Below, in pieces: positions 11,192-45,609 of a stretch of DNA of 64,000 nt. Both the position numbers and the translations under genes were made by a program. Numbering within the stretch: position 1 is the stretch's first letter; the number at the start of each line of letters is the position of its first letter. Under the pieces are notes generated by a model. That model had not been told where the DNA came from, ran no database searches, and saw nothing but the letters and a program-made list of their open reading frames with translations. This DNA is from an uncultured bacterium (GTDB lineage Bacteria; Zhuqueibacterota; QNDG01; DTFT01). The stretch is taken from the NCBI GenBank assembly GCA_963736115.1, contig CAVTNR010000019.1:14914-78913 (forward strand), written 5' to 3'.

Positions 11192-11343
11192 TTCATGGTT
11201 CATAGTTGGAAACAGAAAGCGGGAAATATTTTCAATGAACCATGAACGACGAACTCTATCCTGTCCGAAAGGCCCGCGAAAAGAGGCGGGCCATTTCGGA
11301 CCTACAATGCGCTATGAACTCGAAACCATGAACTATGAACCAT
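11177..11343. repeat. GTTCATR heptad inverted array (left arm 11177-11207; right-arm pieces 11235-11255 and 11312-11343) with a REP hairpin nested in the right arm
   Basis: gttcata gttcata gttcatg gttcata ... atgaac catgaac gacgaac ... [REP] ... ctatgaac tcgaaac catgaac tatgaac. Confidence 0.75.
11263..11305 (+). repeat. REP hairpin copy (GTCCGAAAG...CATTTCGGACCTAC family)
   Basis: GTCCGAAAGGCCCGCgaaaagagGCGGGCCATTTCGGACCTAC. Confidence 0.75.
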
Positions 11344-14460: not shown

Positions 14461-15516
14461 ATGATGAAAATCGCCCTGGATGCCATGGGAGGAGACCGCG
14501 CGCCGCACGACATCGTGTCCGGCGGGATCCTGGCTGCCCGTGCATCCAAGGGCAGATACGAGGTCGTTCTGGTCGGGGACGAGAAGACCGTACGGGCGGA
14601 GCTGGACAAGCACCGTTTCATCCGGGATCTCCCGATTTCAGTCGTGCATGCGAGCCAGACCGTGGACATGGACGAGCCTCCGGCGCAGGCCATGCGCCAG
14701 AAGCCCGATTCCTCCATTGCCGTGGCCGTGAAACTGCACAAGGAGGGCCAGGTCAGCGGCGTGGTCAGCGCCGGGAACACAGGCGCCATGCTGGCGGCCA
14801 GCCTGTTCACGCTCAGAACCATCGACGGGATTATACGGCCGGCGATCGGGGCTTTTCTGCCGCGCGGCCGGGGCGATGTCACGCTGCTCATCGACAGCGG
14901 CGCCAATGTCGACTGCAAGCCCGTGCACCTGCTCCAATTCGGCATCATGGGGTCGATCCTGATGAATCTGCTCTTCGAAATCGAAGAGCCCAAAGTCGGA
15001 CTGCTGAGCGTGGGAGAGGAGCCGACCAAGGGGAATGACACGGTGGTCGAGGCGCACAGCCTTCTGGCTTCGGGTCCCATCCGCTTCATCGGCAATGTCG
15101 AGGGCCGCGATGTGCTTCGGGACAAGGCCGATGTGGTGGTGTGCGACGGGTTCACCGGGAATGTGCTTGTCAAATTCGCCGGCGGCCTGGCCAAAGTGCT
15201 GTCCTCGACGCTGAAGCAGAAAATCGGAGGCAATATCGCGGGAAGGGCAGGGGCCTTTCTCATGCGGCACAAGTTCCGAAAGTTCATCAAGGTGTTCGAT
15301 TCTCAGGAGTACGGGGGGGCCCCGCTGCTGGGCGTGAAGGGGACGGTCATCATCTCCCACGGAAGCTCCACCCCCTATGCCATACGCAACGCCGTGGAGG
15401 AGGCCTACAAGCTCGCGCAGAAGGGCATCCCCCAGCGCATTGAGGCGCAGATCAAGCAGTTGAAAGACCCCGCCGCCCGCTTCGCGGGACCAAGCAATTA
15501 TGTGCCTTCTGGTTGA
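14461..15516 (+). CDS. plsX: Phosphate acyltransferase PlsX
   Basis: KIALDAMGGDRAP ... SAGNTGA ... DGFTGNVLVK ... GAPLLGVKGTVIISHGSS. Confidence 0.9.
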   Translation: MMKIALDAMGGDRAPHDIVSGGILAARASKGRYEVVLVGDEKTVRAELDKHRFIRDLPISVVHASQTVDMDEPPAQAMRQKPDSSIAVAVKLHKEGQVSGVVSAGNTGAMLAASLFTLRTIDGIIRPAIGAFLPRGRGDVTLLIDSGANVDCKPVHLLQFGIMGSILMNLLFEIEEPKVGLLSVGEEPTKGNDTVVEAHSLLASGPIRFIGNVEGRDVLRDKADVVVCDGFTGNVLVKFAGGLAKVLSSTLKQKIGGNIAGRAGAFLMRHKFRKFIKVFDSQEYGGAPLLGVKGTVIISHGSSTPYAIRNAVEEAYKLAQKGIPQRIEAQIKQLKDPAARFAGPSNYVPSG

Positions 15517-26918: not shown

Positions 26919-26966
26919 GTCCGAAAGCCTCGCCCCGCAAAGCGGGGCTCGGCATTTCGGATCTGC
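26919..26966 (+). repeat. REP hairpin copy
   Basis: GTCCGAAAGCCTCGCCCCgcaaagcGGGGCTCGGCATTTCGGATCTGC. Confidence 0.75.
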
Positions 26967-38966: not shown

Positions 38967-41900
38967 TCAGGCCCCCGCCTTCATAAACACATCCAATCTT
39001 CTGATACCGCCTGTCCTTTCGAAAACAGCCTCGCTCCATTTGCGCTCCAGAACCAGGCCGGGTGTCTCGATTTCCCGTTCGTCCCTCATCTTCATCCGGA
39101 TTTTTTCCAGGCGCGACCGGTGCAGAACCACAGGCACCTGGCAGAACGTGTAAGCCAGAGTCCCGGCTTCCAATGCGATCTGCTCTGTTCCGCCGTCCGC
39201 TCCGATGCATTCGAAAATTTCCGGCTTTTTCAGGAATTCCGCGAAGTCCAGCAGTTCCGCGCCGAATGAAAGCTTTCCGTCCGCGATCCGAATCCCGAGT
39301 TCCGCGAGACGGATGAGAATGTCCTCCTTCACCTGGCCGGTCATGCCGGGCTGCTGCACGCCCGCGAATCCCGGCGTATGGGAATAGGGGTCCGTGGGAA
39401 ATGCGCCGTACCGGTCGGGCTGCTTGTGCACGCCGATGCCTTCCCGTATTTCGCGTGTGCGCTTCTTCAGCCGCCGGATGACGGCCGGGTCCGCGCCGGA
39501 ACGCAGGGCTTCGAGAACCGCCTCCTGGCCGGCCAGGCAGAGCTTGGACACCATGTGCCAGTAAATGCAGCCGAGTCCCTCGTACTTGTAGAATGTTCCC
39601 GAACGGCCGGTGAATGACTTGTGGTCGAACATCCGCTCATACAGACCGAGCAGGAACGGCGCTTCCTTCTGCGCCGCTTCCCGCCATTCCGGGTCTTCCA
39701 GGTTTTGAAGAGCCTTCAGAAGGTGTCCGGCGTTCCGGAAATCGGCGTTGAAGTGCAGAACGCCACTGGAGTCGGCCGTCACGATGCGGCGGTCGTTTTC
39801 AGCCGCGCATTTCCGGAGGAAGACCGATTCCCGCACTGCTTCGGCCGGGATGATGTTCTTTTCCGTGAAACGGGGGAGCCTGCGGTCCGGATACAGGAGG
39901 TAGCTGTTCTGGTCCTTGCGGTGGAGGCGGCTCGACCGGAGCGCATCCAGCACATCCGCGCATTCCTCCGCTTTGAGCAGGCCGGAGCTGAGGACCGCGA
40001 CCTGGCCCTCCAGCATTTCGTACAGCCTGCGGATGGAGATCCCGCCGTCCGGCTCCACGGTCATCAGGTTATAGGCGTGGTAAAGTCCGTCCGGCCTCCG
40101 GTTGGCCCGAAGGGTGCTGTCCGCGGCCCGGAGCGCGAGGCCGCAGAAAGCGGAAAGGTCCGCGAGGCTTGTCTCCCGTTTTTCCCCGGACAGGCCTTCC
40201 GCATACAGCTTCGAACGGAATTTGCCTGCCGCTTCTCCGAACCGGTCCAGCGCTTTCCGTCTCCGGACGTCCGTCATCGGTTCATCCGGTCCGGACACGA
40301 GCGATTCGAGCGCGGACCGCGTCGCGTCGAGCCAGTCCGAGACCTCGGCCGCGAGCGGAACCGGGTCCGGGCCGGAACGGTCGAGCAGGTCCCGGAAAAA
40401 GGACAGGTACCGCCGCATGTGGCACAGGGTGACCACGGATACGCCCGATCCGACCAGGGCGTTGTTGGCGTCATTCCATTCAGGCCTCTGGGTGTTCATC
40501 CAGATGCCGGCTTCGGGCATGAAATTCGCGAGCTTGGCGAGAAGGGGAACCAGCATTTTTTCCGCCAGGCCGGCCCGCACCCGGACGCCGTCCGGCCGTG
40601 TGAGGAATTTCCCGTCCTCTCCGATCCCGCGAACACGCTCCCGGACCCGGCCGTCCTGTTCCGCGTCGAAGCGGATGGTGTCGGCTGGATCGCGGATCAG
40701 GTCCGCGTAGGGCCGGATCCGGTAGGGCACGTCCGCATACGTGAAGAAATCACGCCGGAACAGGCCGGACAGCATGCCCGGATGATACCGGTCCGACCAT
40801 TCCAGCAGGCGGAGCAGGTAGACGATCTGGTGATCGCCCCAGTACCCGATGTAGGACCAGGGATCGGCCGGATCGAGAACCTCCCAGTCGAATCCGTCGC
40901 GGGTCACGCGGTAGGGATTGTACCCGTCGGCAGTCGAGGCGTCGACGAATTTGGCGATCATGCTCTCGATGAACCCCGGGAAGCTCTGGGCCAGCGCTTC
41001 CCAGTTCTGGAACAGGTCGCGCCAGTTGCCCTGATAGTTCAGGACCTTGCGGCCGAACCTGTCCTTGATGCCGATGGAAAACAGATTCCAGGGCCTGCTG
41101 GGATCGCCGTGCCTGCGGCTGAAGGTGAGCGGAAGATACTCGAAAGCCAGGCGTTCGAGATCGGGATCCCCTGCGGACGCGGCACGGGAGAGGAGCTCCC
41201 CGTGCGGGAGCGTGACGGGAAGCGAACGGAGCCATTCCGCCTGTGTCCGGGCCAGCGGCCGGTTCGCTTTTTCGACAAAGTCGCGGAAGTCGGATGCGGT
41301 GATGGCGGTTCCGTTGTCCGGGATGCCGCCGCGCATGACATTGAACAGCACGTTTGAAAAGTGCCTGGACGCGCTGAGCCGGTCTGCCGTGGCCTGCCGG
41401 CCGTCCGCGGCCGCCACTACGGCCTCGATGCCGGCCGTGCCGGCGGCGATATCCTCCAGAATGAGCTCCTGCAGGTCCCCGGGACGATGGAGTGTCCCGG
41501 ACAGGTCCGCCACGGCGGCCGAGTCCAGGCCGACGTCGGCCGCGAAAAACCATTCCCGGCCCGTGGACGGCTTGAGCAGGAAGCCGGTCGCGGCGAAATA
41601 AGCGCCCCGAACGCCGCGCATGTCTTTTTCCGGACGCAGCGGTCGGCCGCTCCTGAAGGCTTCCAGTTGCAGGGATGAAAGGATGTGTGTCGGCCGGACC
41701 AGGCCCGCGCACCAGACCGCTGTCGCGCGAAGGGATTCGCTCGGTTCGGCTTTGTCCGTGGGCACCGAACTCAGGGTGAACAGCCCGAGCCCCGTGTCCT
41801 CCAGCAGTTCGTTCTTCTTGTATCCGTCGGCAAGCGTGCTGTATTCGAGCTGAAACCGCCGCTGGATGCCGTCCGGCAGCAGGTTCTGCATCCCGTCCAT

Positions 41901-42422
41901 AATTTCGACGCGGGCTTCGCGGCGGCCGATATTGACCAGGAACGAGTGCTTGATAAATCCGAACCGTTCGCCCGTCATCCAGGCGGTGCGGAAAACGAGC
42001 CCGAGATCACGGTTGACTTCCTCGAACATCAGCTTGTTGCCGGTGGCGTTCTTGTACAGATTCCGCTCCGTCCGGAATGCGGCAGCATCCCGAGCGGAAA
42101 AGGGCTCCCACACCCGGATCCGGGAACCGGACTTCAGACGGACGATGGTTTTGGAACCGGTTATTTCCGCGGAATCGTGGATCTTATCGTCGGTCACGTA
42201 GGGGAAGAGAGCGTGGTCCGGGTCCCGGCGGCCCGCGGTCAACCCGCCGTTGCTCGAAATGAACATCCAGTGGTCGGACCCGCTGACCAGACTCACGAGA
42301 AAAGGCGGCATGCGGTCGACGTTCGAAATCCGGTACCAGGATTCACCGTCGATCGTGACGAAACCGCCGGTCACGGCTTCGGCTTTTTTTGTGCTTTTTG
42401 AGGCGTTTCGGACAGACCGCAT
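38967..42422 (-). CDS. Large cytoplasmic GH94-clan-like putative glycan (beta-1,3-glucan?) phosphorylase
   Basis: 1151 aa from Met20 of the ORF-track product (the upstream 19 codons are REP-encoded). No signal peptide. ...YIGYWGDHQIVYLLRLLE ... NTQRPEWNDANNALVG resembles the (D/E)WND catalytic-region motif of GH94-type phosphorylases. Same strand and locus as GH17 and a GPH transporter. Confidence 0.45.
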   Translation of the reverse strand: MRSVRNASKSTKKAEAVTGGFVTIDGESWYRISNVDRMPPFLVSLVSGSDHWMFISSNGGLTAGRRDPDHALFPYVTDDKIHDSAEITGSKTIVRLKSGSRIRVWEPFSARDAAAFRTERNLYKNATGNKLMFEEVNRDLGLVFRTAWMTGERFGFIKHSFLVNIGRREARVEIMDGMQNLLPDGIQRRFQLEYSTLADGYKKNELLEDTGLGLFTLSSVPTDKAEPSESLRATAVWCAGLVRPTHILSSLQLEAFRSGRPLRPEKDMRGVRGAYFAATGFLLKPSTGREWFFAADVGLDSAAVADLSGTLHRPGDLQELILEDIAAGTAGIEAVVAAADGRQATADRLSASRHFSNVLFNVMRGGIPDNGTAITASDFRDFVEKANRPLARTQAEWLRSLPVTLPHGELLSRAASAGDPDLERLAFEYLPLTFSRRHGDPSRPWNLFSIGIKDRFGRKVLNYQGNWRDLFQNWEALAQSFPGFIESMIAKFVDASTADGYNPYRVTRDGFDWEVLDPADPWSYIGYWGDHQIVYLLRLLEWSDRYHPGMLSGLFRRDFFTYADVPYRIRPYADLIRDPADTIRFDAEQDGRVRERVRGIGEDGKFLTRPDGVRVRAGLAEKMLVPLLAKLANFMPEAGIWMNTQRPEWNDANNALVGSGVSVVTLCHMRRYLSFFRDLLDRSGPDPVPLAAEVSDWLDATRSALESLVSGPDEPMTDVRRRKALDRFGEAAGKFRSKLYAEGLSGEKRETSLADLSAFCGLALRAADSTLRANRRPDGLYHAYNLMTVEPDGGISIRRLYEMLEGQVAVLSSGLLKAEECADVLDALRSSRLHRKDQNSYLLYPDRRLPRFTEKNIIPAEAVRESVFLRKCAAENDRRIVTADSSGVLHFNADFRNAGHLLKALQNLEDPEWREAAQKEAPFLLGLYERMFDHKSFTGRSGTFYKYEGLGCIYWHMVSKLCLAGQEAVLEALRSGADPAVIRRLKKRTREIREGIGVHKQPDRYGAFPTDPYSHTPGFAGVQQPGMTGQVKEDILIRLAELGIRIADGKLSFGAELLDFAEFLKKPEIFECIGADGGTEQIALEAGTLAYTFCQVPVVLHRSRLEKIRMKMRDEREIETPGLVLERKWSEAVFERTGGIRRLDVFMKAGA

Positions 42423-42436
42423 TAGTATTCCCTCAT

Positions 42437-42474
42437 GTAGGTCCGATATGCCGAGCGTAGCGAGGCTATCGGAC
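42437..42474 (-). repeat. REP hairpin copy (inverted orientation, begins GTAG)
   Basis: GTAGGTCCGATATGCCGAGCGtaGCGAGGCTATCGGAC. Its reverse complement differs from the copy at 43139-43176 at 3 positions, two of which form a compensatory A/T pair. Confidence 0.8.
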
Positions 42475-42479
42475 ATCAA

Positions 42480-42989
42480 TTATTCCGGATTCATCCCGCG
42501 TATGCCGGGGATTTCCTTCCAACCCCATCCGAACTCGTAATGACCTTGCTTCACGAAATCAATATAACTGGAATGGGGCCATCGCTCCGGTTTGTCTGTC
42601 AATCCGTGTTTGACCGGGTTGAAATGAATGTAATCCAGATGTCTGTTTATGTCTTCATGATTTCGGATCACATGGTCGTAGAAACGATGTTGGGCGAGAG
42701 TCACGGGAGTCCTGATCTGATGATGACTCTTGAAATTGCATGTAAAATTTCGGCGAAGAGATTGAATGATAACGGAGAGTGCGGATTGTTCCGGTTCCAA
42801 AAGAAAGTGAAAATGATCAGGCAGAATGACATAGGCATATAACCGGTGGGGATAATGTTTGCGGACTCTGGAGAGGGTGTCCATCAGGATGCCCGAATTG
42901 ACCGGATCGGAGAAGATGGGTTGTCGATCATGGTTGACGCACGTTATGAAATACACCGCTCCGATTATATGGTAACGGCGAATATCCAT
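42480..42989 (-). CDS. REP-associated tyrosine transposase (RAYT; IS200/IS605 TnpA-like, Y1 HUH)
   Basis: 169 aa. HUH motif in ILPDHFHFLLEP. Catalytic-Tyr region RHLDYIHFNPVKHGL. RFYDHVIRN. Immediately flanked by REP hairpins. Confidence 0.85.
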   Translation of the reverse strand: MDIRRYHIIGAVYFITCVNHDRQPIFSDPVNSGILMDTLSRVRKHYPHRLYAYVILPDHFHFLLEPEQSALSVIIQSLRRNFTCNFKSHHQIRTPVTLAQHRFYDHVIRNHEDINRHLDYIHFNPVKHGLTDKPERWPHSSYIDFVKQGHYEFGWGWKEIPGIRGMNPE

Positions 42990-43002
42990 GTGTCTTTCTA
43001 TT

Positions 43003-43046
43003 GTCCGAAAGCCTCGCCCCTGCGGGGCTCGGCATTTCGGACCTAG
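43003..43046 (+). repeat. REP hairpin copy
   Basis: GTCCGAAAGCCTCGCCCCtgcGGGGCTCGGCATTTCGGACCTAG. Confidence 0.8.
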
Positions 43047-43074
43047 AAATTATTTAATGATAAACGTTCTTTTT

Positions 43075-43121
43075 GTAGGTCCGATATGCCCGGCATGTCT
43101 TTTCATGCCGGGCTATCGGAC
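43075..43121 (-). repeat. REP hairpin copy (inverted orientation)
   Basis: GTAGGTCCGATATGCCCGGCATGtcttttCATGCCGGGCTATCGGAC. Forms a REPIN-like doublet with 43139-43176. Confidence 0.8.
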
Positions 43122-43138
43122 GTTTATTTCGGGGATTT

Positions 43139-43176
43139 GTCCGAAAGCCTCGCTTCGCTCGGCATTTCGGACCTAC
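43139..43176 (+). repeat. REP hairpin copy
   Basis: GTCCGAAAGCCTCGCttcGCTCGGCATTTCGGACCTAC. Overlaps the GH17 stop codon. Confidence 0.8.
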
Positions 43177-44180
43177 ATTTCATAGGACGGGGACGTCGGT
43201 TCGTCCGTGACCCTCTCCGGATACCACTCCCGCATCGCCTTCTTGGCCTTGCGGTCCTCGGAAAAAAGGCCCCAGTGCCCCTCGGTGCCAGTGCCCTTCC
43301 ATGGCTCGTCGAATGCCTCGAAATAGAAAACATGGACTCCGTTCGCCTTCGCCCATTCGTTGAGTTCGCGGAAGTACCGCTCCTGCTTGTCCTCGTCCCC
43401 GGCTTTCGGCGCGTGCGCCGGCCCCACCGTGTAGGTCGCCCAGCCCGCCTCGCCGATGACGAGCGTTATTCCCGGGAGCGCTTTTTGGACGCTTTTCACG
43501 TGGCGCACGGTGTGGGTCAGGGCGCTGTCGATGTCCGATCCGCCCCACATCGGGTAGGTGTGCACGGCCACGAAATCCACATGCTGCGCCAGCGACGCTC
43601 CGTCCGGCTCACGCCAGAACGTGAAATCGTCGTCCACGGTCACGGGAACGGAAACCGAATCGCGGACGCGATCCACGGCCCGGATCGCGTCCGTTAGCGT
43701 CATCCGGTGGTCCGACCAGGAAACCAGGATTTCATTGCCCACGCTGACCGCGGCGACGACATCCGGGTATTGATTGGCGAGCCGGATGCAGTTTTGGATC
43801 TGCTCCTCATTTTCTATTTCCTTGCCTGCGGACCCGCTCAGCCAGGCGCCGAGCATGACCCGGATCGGGATTTTATTTGTCCGTATCACCTGCAGGACAT
43901 CCTCACTGTGGCGGTCCGAACCATAGGTCCGGATCATCCGCCAGTGACGCTCAAGAATGCGCATGTCCTCCAATATTTCCGCCTGAGACGGATATGTCTG
44001 CGTCTGCGGGCTCTGGCCGGCGCGGTATCCTGAATAGCAGATCATGTGGCCGGCCCATTTCTGGGCGGTGAGGTCGATGTTCCGGGGACGCGGTCCGCAG
44101 CCCGCACCGACGAGGCCGAGCAGTAGCAAGCCGACCGCGGCGTAGGCCCGGCTGTGGAAGGATGTCCGTTCTTGGGTCAT
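43173..44180 (-). CDS. Glycoside hydrolase family 17-like beta-1,3-glucanase/transglycosylase lipoprotein
   Basis: Lipobox LVGAGCG. (beta/alpha)8 pattern with AVSVGNEILV (acid/base Glu region) and VIGEAGWAT (nucleophile Glu region). FYFEAFDEPWK. Confidence 0.75.
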   Translation of the reverse strand: MTQERTSFHSRAYAAVGLLLLGLVGAGCGPRPRNIDLTAQKWAGHMICYSGYRAGQSPQTQTYPSQAEILEDMRILERHWRMIRTYGSDRHSEDVLQVIRTNKIPIRVMLGAWLSGSAGKEIENEEQIQNCIRLANQYPDVVAAVSVGNEILVSWSDHRMTLTDAIRAVDRVRDSVSVPVTVDDDFTFWREPDGASLAQHVDFVAVHTYPMWGGSDIDSALTHTVRHVKSVQKALPGITLVIGEAGWATYTVGPAHAPKAGDEDKQERYFRELNEWAKANGVHVFYFEAFDEPWKGTGTEGHWGLFSEDRKAKKAMREWYPERVTDEPTSPSYEM

Positions 44181-44207
44181 GACCCGCTCCTATTCTCGTG
44201 TCCGTTT

Positions 44208-44253
44208 GTCCGAAAGCCTCGCCCCGTTCCGGGGCTCGGCATTTCGGACCTGC
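44208..44253 (+). repeat. REP hairpin copy
   Basis: GTCCGAAAGCCTCGCCCCgttccGGGGCTCGGCATTTCGGACCTGC, between the GH17 and transporter genes. Confidence 0.8.
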
Positions 44254-44259
44254 AACCGG

Positions 44260-45609
44260 TTAAGACGCGCGCCGTTTGGCGAGATCCGCCTCGATCCGCT
44301 TCATGAACGGCTCGTCCAGCGTGTAGAAGCAGGCCGCGGCCGCGGCCAGGGCGCTGCCCACAGCCGGGATCACGCTGATGAGGAGCCGGATGCCGTTCTG
44401 CGTCGCCTCGGTCTGGACCACGTTCGCCTTGAACCCGAAATACGCGAGCAGCCAGCCCGCCAGCGCGCCGCCGATCGTGTATCCCATTTTCTGCGCGAAA
44501 CTGGCCGCGGAAAACACCAGGCCGGTGGCCCGGCGGTTCCACTTCCATTCCGAGTAGTCCGCGGTGTCCGCGTACATGGCCCAGATCAGGGGAGCGGTCG
44601 GGGCCAGGAAGAACGAGATCGCGATGTGCAGGCCGAACACGGCGACGATGTTCTCCCGGGGGACGAAGTAGAACAGCGTCGTCAGCACGGTCGTGACTCC
44701 CATCAGCGCGATGTAGAGGTTCCGTTTGCCGAACCGGGAGGCGAAGAAATTGGTGAGCATGATGCCGACGATCACGGCCGCGGTGCCGGCCATCATGAAC
44801 GCCGAGGTCAGGGACTCCCGGCCCACGTAGTACTTGAAGTAATAGATGACGGCCCCGCTGCGGATGCAGTTGTACGTCAGCGCGAAAATGCCGATGAGGA
44901 ACATGACGAGCCAGGGCCCGTTGTGCGACAGGTCGCGGAGGTCGTTTCGAAGGGGCGTCTTTTGCGCCTGCGGCGGCCGGACGCGTTCCTTCGTCAGGCG
45001 GAAGGTCAGGTAGAACAGGGCGACGGCCGCGACGGAGTAGATCATGAGCGTGCGCTGGAACCCGGCCGCCTGGCTTTCGCCGCCCAGGGCTTTGACCAGG
45101 GGGAGGGTCGCGCCCTGCACGACGAAGGTCGCGGCCATGGCCAGCACGAAACGGTAGGAGGACAGGCTGGTTCTTTCCATCGAATCCGGGGTCATCACGC
45201 CCATCAGCGCGGAATAGGGAATATTGACCACTGTGTAGGCCATGATCATCAGGGAGTACGTGATATAGGCATACACGAGCTTGCCGGTCATTCCGAAACC
45301 CGGCGTGGTGAACGTGAGCACGCCGATGATCCCGATGGGAAGCGCGCCCCAGATCAGCCAGGGCCGGAACTTTCCCCATCGGCTCTCCGTCCGGTCCGCG
45401 ATCAGGCCCATGAGCGGATCGTTGGCCGTGTCCCATATGCGGACGACGAGGAACATGGTGCCGGCCGCGGCCGCGGAAATGCCGAACACGTCCGTGTAGA
45501 AGAAGAGGAGGAAATTCATGAACATCTGCCAGTAGAAATTGGAGGCGGCGTCTCCCAGGCCGTACCCGATTTTTTCCTTGACTGAGAGCCGGTTGGAGCG
45601 GGTTTCCAT
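44260..45609 (-). CDS. MFS transporter, glycoside-pentoside-hexuronide (GPH):cation symporter family
   Basis: LSVKEKIGYGLGDAASNFYWQMFMNFLLFFYTDVFGI ... RTESRWGKFRPWLIWGALP is the MelB/YicJ-type N-terminal signature. 12-TM-like hydrophobicity. Confidence 0.85.
   Translation of the reverse strand: METRSNRLSVKEKIGYGLGDAASNFYWQMFMNFLLFFYTDVFGISAAAAGTMFLVVRIWDTANDPLMGLIADRTESRWGKFRPWLIWGALPIGIIGVLTFTTPGFGMTGKLVYAYITYSLMIMAYTVVNIPYSALMGVMTPDSMERTSLSSYRFVLAMAATFVVQGATLPLVKALGGESQAAGFQRTLMIYSVAAVALFYLTFRLTKERVRPPQAQKTPLRNDLRDLSHNGPWLVMFLIGIFALTYNCIRSGAVIYYFKYYVGRESLTSAFMMAGTAAVIVGIMLTNFFASRFGKRNLYIALMGVTTVLTTLFYFVPRENIVAVFGLHIAISFFLAPTAPLIWAMYADTADYSEWKWNRRATGLVFSAASFAQKMGYTIGGALAGWLLAYFGFKANVVQTEATQNGIRLLISVIPAVGSALAAAAACFYTLDEPFMKRIEADLAKRRAS

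Follow-up and report, generated by a model that had tools for sequence, protein, structure and literature searches.

A stretch of 64,000 nucleotides from the genome of an uncultured bacterium (GTDB lineage Bacteria; Zhuqueibacterota; QNDG01; DTFT01), covering positions 14,914 to 78,913 of contig CAVTNR010000019.1 of GenBank assembly GCA_963736115.1 and hereafter called the window, very probably contains a REPtron: a single-copy, domesticated transposase of the HUH/Y1 type, of the class associated with repetitive extragenic palindromes (REPs) and called RAYT (REP-associated tyrosine transposase), bracketed by its cognate REPs. Comparison with related genomes indicates that the gene and the repeat family are inherited together, vertically. 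An earlier note on the window had described a RAYT with a swarm of hairpins inserted in a glycan-utilisation operon and had judged the system apparently active; the protein, the hairpins, and their location stand, and the claims of insertion and of activity fare less well, as detailed below. By analogy with TnpAREP of Escherichia coli, the RAYT would bind the folded, single-stranded REP hairpin, reading the GTAG head, the lower stem, and an unpaired bulge, and taking the upper stem for structure devoid of specificity. Cleavage and rejoining of REP DNA would follow, and over evolutionary time this activity would have seeded about 63 intergenic copies, either as singletons or as head-outward heterodimers of the two repeat subfamilies (AAA and ATA), in the manner of bacterial interspersed mosaic elements (BIMEs). 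The components of the system in the window are the following (coordinates are those of the window).

42480..42989, minus strand: RAYT / TnpAREP gene, 169 aa, with its own ATG and stop; NF047646, Pfam, and 4ER8 matches
42437..42474, plus strand: REP, ATA subfamily, GTAG head at 42437-42440; fold -10.2 kcal/mol, z = -4.0
43003..43046, minus strand: REP, AAA subfamily, CTAG head; fold -16.1 kcal/mol, z = -5.5
43075..43121, plus strand: REP, ATA subfamily, GTAG head, left half of a doublet; fold -21.3 kcal/mol, z = -10.2
43139..43176, minus strand: REP, AAA subfamily, GTAG head, right half of the doublet; pattern match and fold
44208..44253, minus strand: REP, AAA subfamily, GCAG head, in the MFS_2-GH17 spacer; pattern match and fold
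11263..11305, minus strand: dispersed REP, AAA subfamily, GCCCGC-type upper stem; pattern match and fold
26919..26966, minus strand: dispersed REP, AAA subfamily, GCAG head, one lower-stem mismatch (ATCCGAAATG); fold

The RAYT protein

The 169-aa translation of the open reading frame (ORF) at 42480-42989, on the minus strand, contains VILPDHFHFLLEP and HLDYIHFNPVKHGL. It scores 133.9 bits against the NCBIfam model of REP-associated tyrosine transposases (NF047646, REP_Tyr_transpos), whose cut-off is 80 bits, gives no match at E <= 0.01 to the NCBIfam model transpos_IS200 (NF033573), and has a weak match to the Pfam domain Y1_Tnp (25.7 bits). The HUH motif is formed by H59 and H61 (DHFH), and the catalytic tyrosine is Y120 in YIHFNP, where the motif runs Y120-IHF-N124-P125. 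Its nearest relative of known structure in the PDB is the E. coli TnpAREP (4ER8_A, E = 1.9e-17), residues 2-156 aligning with residues 3-151. We aligned the RAYT with three close homologues (71-77% identical), with distant homologues, and with E. coli TnpAREP (alignment A1): the two HUH histidines, the catalytic tyrosine, N124, Q100, H106, and R109 are all invariant, the last four being N119, Q95, H101, and R104 in the E. coli enzyme. The model score, the closest structure, and the presence of both HUH and tyrosine bear out the earlier assignment of the protein to the RAYTs.

A tblastn search of the assembly (a metagenome-assembled genome, MAG, of 3.34 Mb in 31 contigs and 87% complete, in which the window is C19:14914-78913) returned a single match at 100% identity, the next ones being paralogues on contigs C2 and C17 that are 25-29% identical. 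Against three orthologues, the ratio of non-synonymous to synonymous substitutions (dN/dS) is 0.11-0.17, for dS values of 0.9-1.6; this is the signature of a gene under purifying selection, its catalytic residues included. Beyond its own genus, the nearest homologues are found in Chloroflexota, Zixibacteria, and Proteobacteria. By its motifs, the RAYT would fall nearest to Quentin subclass 2.2 / Bertels group 2: the traits set against the motif table of PMC6006769 were the DHFH, YD, and YIHFNP motifs, the length of 169 aa, the C-terminal tail with WPHSSY, and a REP of the 'long with bulge' type, and the consensus of subclass 2.2 in that table is DHLH / WE / YIHYNP, with about 165 aa, a C-terminal tail with SS, and a REP 'long with bulge'.

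The composition of the gene is peculiar. Its GC content is 46.5% (52% at third codon positions, GC3), for 62-63% in the neighbouring genes (GC3 79-89%) and 61% in the window, and the orthologues, for all their long vertical descent, are just as AT-rich. The trend extends to many phyla: among 75 homologous loci, the RAYT is more AT-rich than its flanks in 97% of cases, with a mean difference of 7 points. Word searches of two papers on RAYTs found no mention of this trait, which could reflect selection keeping the enzyme scarce.

The cognate repeats

All repeats follow one plan. An unpaired (gtt)GTAG head precedes an 8-bp lower stem, GTCCGA[A/T]A / T[A/T]TCGGAC, separated from the rest of the hairpin by a bulged T; above the bulge, GCC pairs with GGC in a short stem, a tandem G.A mismatch often follows, and a variable, self-complementary upper stem with its loop completes the hairpin. 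The stem sequence can be written GTCCGAWATG...CTWTCGGAC. The seven copies in the window all fold to this arrangement of head, stem, bulge, and upper stem as single-stranded DNA, with z-scores from -4 to -10 and with the 4-nt head unpaired throughout. Six of them match the pattern GTCCGAWAG-N(10-40)-CATWTCGGAC exactly, for 0.00 matches expected from 100 dinucleotide-preserving shuffles; the matches start at 11263, 42441, 43003, 43079, 43139, and 44208 (the starts 42437 and 43075 given in the list above count in the GTAG head). The seventh hairpin recognised in the earlier note, at 26919, carries one mismatch. The RAYT is bracketed by an AAA copy on its 5' side, which ends 13 nt upstream of the start codon and has the orientation of the gene (43003-43046), and by an ATA copy on its 3' side, which lies 5 nt past the stop codon with its head directed away from the gene (42437-42474). 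Both heads thus point outward, and the same arrangement is found at two loci of relatives (L001 and L002). No Rfam family matched 42000-44600 at E <= 1, and a sigma-70 promoter scan found no site. A terminator scan returned 6 sites where 2.4 were expected, one of which (43083-43099) overlaps a REP, within the copy at 43075-43121.

The partition between a fixed foot and a free tip has a precedent. With E. coli TnpAREP, no alteration of the GTAG motif is accepted, and the enzyme needs lower-stem positions as well as an unpaired bulge; replacing the loop and upper stem by their complement leaves activity intact, and deleting them does not (PMC8266576). A conserved foot under a variable but paired tip would be expected here because an enzyme resembling E. 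coli TnpAREP would select for it, as the SELEX experiments of that study suggest. The pairing itself is visible in the pattern of substitutions. Over the 63 genomic REPs, the pair at stem position 7 is A-T in 32 copies, T-A in 29, and mismatched in 2 (Fisher p = 6e-16), as expected of a covarying, compensatory base pair. Among 19 REPs of equal length, 98.6% of the cells are paired, and five pairs show changes on both sides; the covariation score is 0.212, for 0.060 in shuffled data, with the score reached by 0 of 500 shuffles and the pair count by 1 of 500. When the structures are slid by 1-3 columns, pairing drops to 22-46%. The fraction of paired bases in the core, 0.63 observed for 0.55 shuffled, is not discriminating in sequence so rich in GC.

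The family reaches well beyond the window: about 63 copies are spread over many contigs of the 3.34-Mb assembly, which disposes of the possibility that the hairpins were absent from the rest of the genome. The head is GTAG in 50 of these 63 copies, in agreement with the earlier reading of the other strand, GCAG in five, and one of eight further variants, each seen once, in the remainder. Only two copies lie within an ORF that extends 60 codons or more to each side, compared with 74% of random 43-bp windows; the REPs are mainly extragenic and modest in copy number. The commonest 16-mer flanking the RAYT, GTAGGTCCGATATGCC, occurs 23 times in the genome; for housekeeping-gene flanks and random genomes the commonest 16-mer occurs about five times (PMC5581495).

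The copies divide into 32 of the AAA subfamily, 29 of the ATA subfamily, and 2 mixed ones. There are 14 pairs of neighbouring REPs less than 200 bp apart, 11 of which have their GTAG heads outward; all 11 unite one AAA and one ATA copy, across spacers of 14-31 nt. Since the two types are always paired in doublets, and both occur on either strand genome-wide, they are two REP subfamilies. The A/T difference had been read before as a compensatory change between orientation classes: the compensation is real, the orientation classes are not. The doublet of 43075-43121 and 43139-43176, also recognised before, is indeed inverted, with its GTAG heads outward and a 17-nt spacer. It folds as two independent hairpins (-31.6 kcal/mol) because its halves differ in the upper stem, so that it comes closer to a BIME heterodimer than to the REPIN-like element that had been suggested.

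In nine REPs, the upper stem-loop encloses a further conserved palindrome (CCCCGGATCAAGTCCGGGG + GCAAGCTT), which brings these units to 60-72 nt including the head. They represent either a composite subfamily or a small element targeting REP loops. Their positions are as follows.

REPs with nested palindrome: C1:111722, C5:16481, C5:47732, C8:172907, C8:177624, C12:259082, C14:15425, C17:97294, C30:88045

Inheritance and genomic context

The gene and the repeats have the same distribution among relatives. An orthologue of the RAYT (70-77% identity) is present in only three of 40 relatives, all from the same genus. The 13-mer TAGGTCCGAWATG of the family occurs 56, 41, 100, and 40 times in the four genomes with an orthologue (that of the window included), 0 times in 33 of the 37 other relatives, 11 times in genome G011, and 1-4 times in three more; the reversed 13-mer, used as a control, occurs 0-1 times per genome. 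The gene order is also shared. The succession of MFS_2, GH17, RAYT, and a gene of about 1150-1160 aa is found in full at L002 and in the JGI contig P0003, where the RAYT is 71% identical; at L001 the RAYT is followed by a gene of 1155 aa, on a contig that begins just upstream of the RAYT, and the contig of G002 (L084) is too short to reveal the neighbours. These arrangements indicate that the position of the RAYT and its REPs in the operon predates the divergence of these species, at least four in number, and was inherited vertically. The element is therefore 'inserted' only in the sense that it lies between the GH17 and phosphorylase genes: the position is old and common to at least three other genomes, and no recent event is implied.

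Within this stable frame, individual REPs come and go. The MFS_2-GH17 spacer has one REP in the window and five in L002, and measures 17 nt in P0003, judging by gene coordinates alone. The GCAG-headed copy at 44208-44253 has an orthologue with the same head in the same spacer of L002 (genome G003), and the G002 contig (L084) has a REP sharing the core of this copy, but with a GTAG head. Comparison of these loci indicates that individual REPs are gained, lost, and locally amplified between species. In another lineage, a RAYT that is 62% identical and resides at a different locus goes with the same REP family, again as AAA+ATA heterodimers with a similar spacer. This RAYT comes from metagenome contigs (L088, L089, L090), where its locus is unrelated to the laminarin operon, and the doublets flanking it match those of G011. 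G011 itself represents a different family within the order of the present bacterium; its few AAA+ATA doublets of this REP family are near-identical (L087, G011:C78:1-1260), and the cognate RAYT is missing from the MAG. The RAYT that G011 does encode (L085, 35% identical) was considered as the user of these REPs and ruled out, as it is flanked by a different repeat, GGTGGGATAGAATCCCACC.

The genes around the REPtron in the window are these.

44260..45609, minus strand: MFS_2 sugar transporter gene, first in the operon (Pfam PF13347, 351.6 bits)
43173..44180, minus strand: beta-1,3-glucanase gene of glycoside hydrolase (GH) family 17 (Pfam PF00332, 31.5 bits)
38967..42422, minus strand: GH149 beta-1,3-glucan phosphorylase gene (NF058639, 1572.6 bits for a cut-off of 1150; PDB 6HQ6, E = 0)

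Hence, the putative phosphorylase of the earlier note is a GH149 enzyme and, as this large gene is a GH149, the REPtron sits within an operon of the laminarin type, in which (38967-45609) MFS_2, GH17, and GH149 are co-directional. A polysaccharide deacetylase is encoded beyond GH149, on the opposite strand, in both the window and the P0003 contig. REP hairpins are present in every spacer of the operon, and they touch its reading frames at two points. The longest ORF call of the GH149 gene starts at a TTG (42479), and its first 19 codons or so are REP DNA, in line with the spurious N-terminal codons suspected earlier; translation probably begins at the ATG at 42422. The stop codon of GH17 is the TAG (43173-43175) of a REP's GTAG head (43173-43176). 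Since the head supplies the stop, the hairpin starts directly after it, and the ATG-TAG-GTCCGAAAT junction is repeated in L002 (7507-7510). Of the 52 REPs with a TAG head in the genome, 9 terminate an open frame of 100 codons or more that lies upstream, for 3-6 in control frames. The RAYT gene is not an in-frame cassette embedded in a host gene, as it has an ATG and a stop codon to itself and the frame of GH17 closes at this TAG before reaching it.

These features open the possibility that the REPtron is a working part of the laminarin operon, not a passive lodger, which we regard as doubtful. In such a case, the REPs would set the relative expression of the transporter, the glucanase, and the phosphorylase through mRNA stability or ribosome stalling, and the expression of the RAYT, hence the mobility of the REPs, would be coupled to the availability of beta-glucan. 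The points behind the idea are the co-directional position of the RAYT between GH17 and GH149 in at least four species, the REPs in every spacer, and the GH17 stop codon in a REP head.

The genome has other elements of this kind outside the window. A second REPtron, at C2:71302-72100, has as its RAYT a paralogue of 25-28% identity (164 aa counted from the first Met; 88.2 bits against NF047646), with nine copies in all, on its two sides, of another GTAG repeat, GGTAGCCGCA-NNCTTYAGNN-TGCG, which has about 25 hairpin-forming copies genome-wide; the two REP families lie side by side at C9:229367-229540. A third Y1 paralogue, at C17:75021-75425, has NHCH and YIEENP motifs and 90.9 bits against NF047646, and by these motifs it looks like a member of Quentin subclass 2.1. 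The sequence GCCGCGYTGGGGCGCGGCACTCCC occurs twice just downstream of it and, with 2 copies in the genome, is not a dispersed repeat.

Competing readings and known systems

A number of observations weigh against a REPtron working in the way of E. coli. The 63 REPs include 62 distinct sequences and no abundant, identical 'master' copy, which does not support a recent burst of replication in this genome; the sole identical pair is explained by the redundancy of the MAG assembly between C7 and C16. (The segments C7:41260-44879 and C16:14818-18436 are the same sequence in opposite orientation, REP 41260-41303 of C7 being REP 18393-18436 of C16.) Classical REP families typically exceed 100 copies, and the present one, with about 63, falls below this. 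In relatives, the doublet adjacent to the RAYT recurs at near full length only at their RAYT loci, a distribution that fits local tandem amplification rather than dispersal. Finally, Trp94 of E. coli TnpAREP, a residue highly conserved among the REP-associated subclasses, is an Ala in the clade of close homologues (62-77% identical), and the 'WE' motif is replaced there by YD or FD, with YD in the window RAYT. The earlier description of the system as apparently active needs tempering: with no sign of a recent burst, only the purifying selection on the gene and the turnover of the REPs speak for activity.

Some of these points feed the most serious alternative, which we hold to be improbable. 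The RAYT would be real and the system no longer mobile, its REPs being old relics kept by the host as structural or regulatory hairpins, for the protection of mRNA 3' ends, the attenuation of translation by stop codons, or the segmentation of the operon. The RAYT would be retained for some other host function, and REP numbers would shift only by local duplication, deletion, and recombination. The distinctness of 62 of the 63 copies and the purely local amplification of the doublet are what this scenario would produce, and so are single REPs that are orthologous across species, such as the GCAG-headed copy of the MFS_2-GH17 spacer, upper stems that keep pairing despite sequence change, and a REP head that doubles as the GH17 stop codon in two species. 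It sits less well with the variation of copy number among congeners, from 40 to 100, and with the dispersal of both subfamilies over many contigs. The strict GTAG head and lower stem fit recognition by a RAYT, not the needs of a terminator, and the catalytic residues are under purifying selection. The two remaining explanations have almost nothing left to them. The weak Y1_Tnp match and the inverted hairpins flanking the gene would suit an ordinary autonomous insertion sequence (IS) of the IS200/IS605 type with incidentally repeated subterminal hairpins, but such an IS is barely conceivable when the protein lacks a match to transpos_IS200, the gene has one copy whose sole paralogues are 25-29% identical, its neighbours are GH17 and GH149 with neither TnpB nor IS end, the hairpins occur some 60 times without it, and several species share its position by synteny. 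A chance origin of the palindromes, or an artefact of assembly, would draw on the partial redundancy of the MAG, where the C7 REP site and its flanks recur on C16; this is next to impossible to reconcile with the zero matches expected by shuffling and with the presence of the family in metagenome contigs and in four genomes whose assemblies are independent of one another.

The REPtron that remains the preferred explanation is most similar to that of E. coli (TnpAREP, RayT/YafM, 4ER8; PMC2817692, PMC3479197, PMC8266576), which belongs to Bertels group 2 / Quentin subclass 2.2. Both have a small (165-169 aa) HUH/Y1 protein of the monomer type with a C-terminal extension, encoded by a single-copy, vertically inherited gene that is flanked by two REP subtypes in inverted orientation, and both have REPs with a GTAG head and an imperfect palindrome, 'long with bulge'. 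As in the Y/Z BIMEs of E. coli, the dimers are heterotypic, with a conserved foot and a free upper stem-loop. The differences are also clear: the proteins share 32% identity, the motifs are DHFH/YD/YIHFNP instead of DHLH/WE/YIHYNP, Trp94 is replaced by Ala, the host is not a proteobacterium, and there are about 63 copies instead of hundreds. The unpaired element is a bulged T with a tandem G.A mismatch here and an A12A13-G26C27 mismatch in E. coli.

The repeats also resemble the super-family of GTAG-tagged REPs (PMC3733652), which have a GTAG tail, a stem-loop, mostly 'HH' dimers with GTAG outside, and heterodimers with different stems. That study lists 24 families; it reports GTAG REPs in Proteobacteria, Cyanobacteria, Chloroflexi, and bacteria of the Planctomycetes-Verrucomicrobia-Chlamydiae (PVC) group, with tagged REPs in eight phyla overall, and the host lineage of the window is not among the phyla it names for GTAG repeats. 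As to this lineage, the host's SecA is 93% identical to proteins whose label is simply 'bacterium', and the only relatives with a name, from candidate division KSB1, reach about 70% identity over 60% of the protein, so that the phylum is tentative by this marker; rpoB is absent from the MAG by both a motif scan and a search with TIGR02013. Genes similar to tnpAREP are found in more than 25% of species (Quentin et al., PMC6006769). The novelty claimed at first for a system outside Proteobacteria was therefore overstated, as both GTAG REPs and RAYTs beyond this phylum were already catalogued (PMC3733652, PMC6006769).

With the REPINs of Pseudomonas fluorescens SBW25 (PMC3116915), which go with group 3 RAYTs, the system shares inverted doublets, a single-copy RAYT with vertical inheritance, and the transmission of doublet and spacer as a unit. 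It differs from them in that the halves have different upper stems and fold as two hairpins instead of a long one, that there is no abundant master, and that the protein is nearer to group 2; having two hairpins and no abundant master sequence, it falls outside the REPINs as Bertels and Rainey delimit them. The resemblance to the TnpA of IS200/IS605 elements (IS608, ISDra2) lies in the HUH/Y1 protein and in single-stranded DNA hairpins with a tetranucleotide guide at their foot. Unlike these elements, the system is not an autonomous, multi-copy IS, has no TnpB and no match to the IS200 model, and has hairpins that far outnumber the gene.

What is described here is a well-characterised type of system, and it leaves the current picture of REPs and RAYTs unchanged; annotation of the PGAP type should already name the RAYT gene correctly by means of NF047646. 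Its value lies in a mapped REP/RAYT pair from an uncultured lineage of the Fibrobacteres-Chlorobi-Bacteroidetes (FCB) group, whose nearest named relatives are in candidate division KSB1, and in the persistence of such a system at one locus across species outside Proteobacteria. The AAA and ATA subtypes, which are one compensatory base pair apart and always paired in doublets, would provide a natural experiment on how a RAYT resembling those of group 2 reads its substrate.

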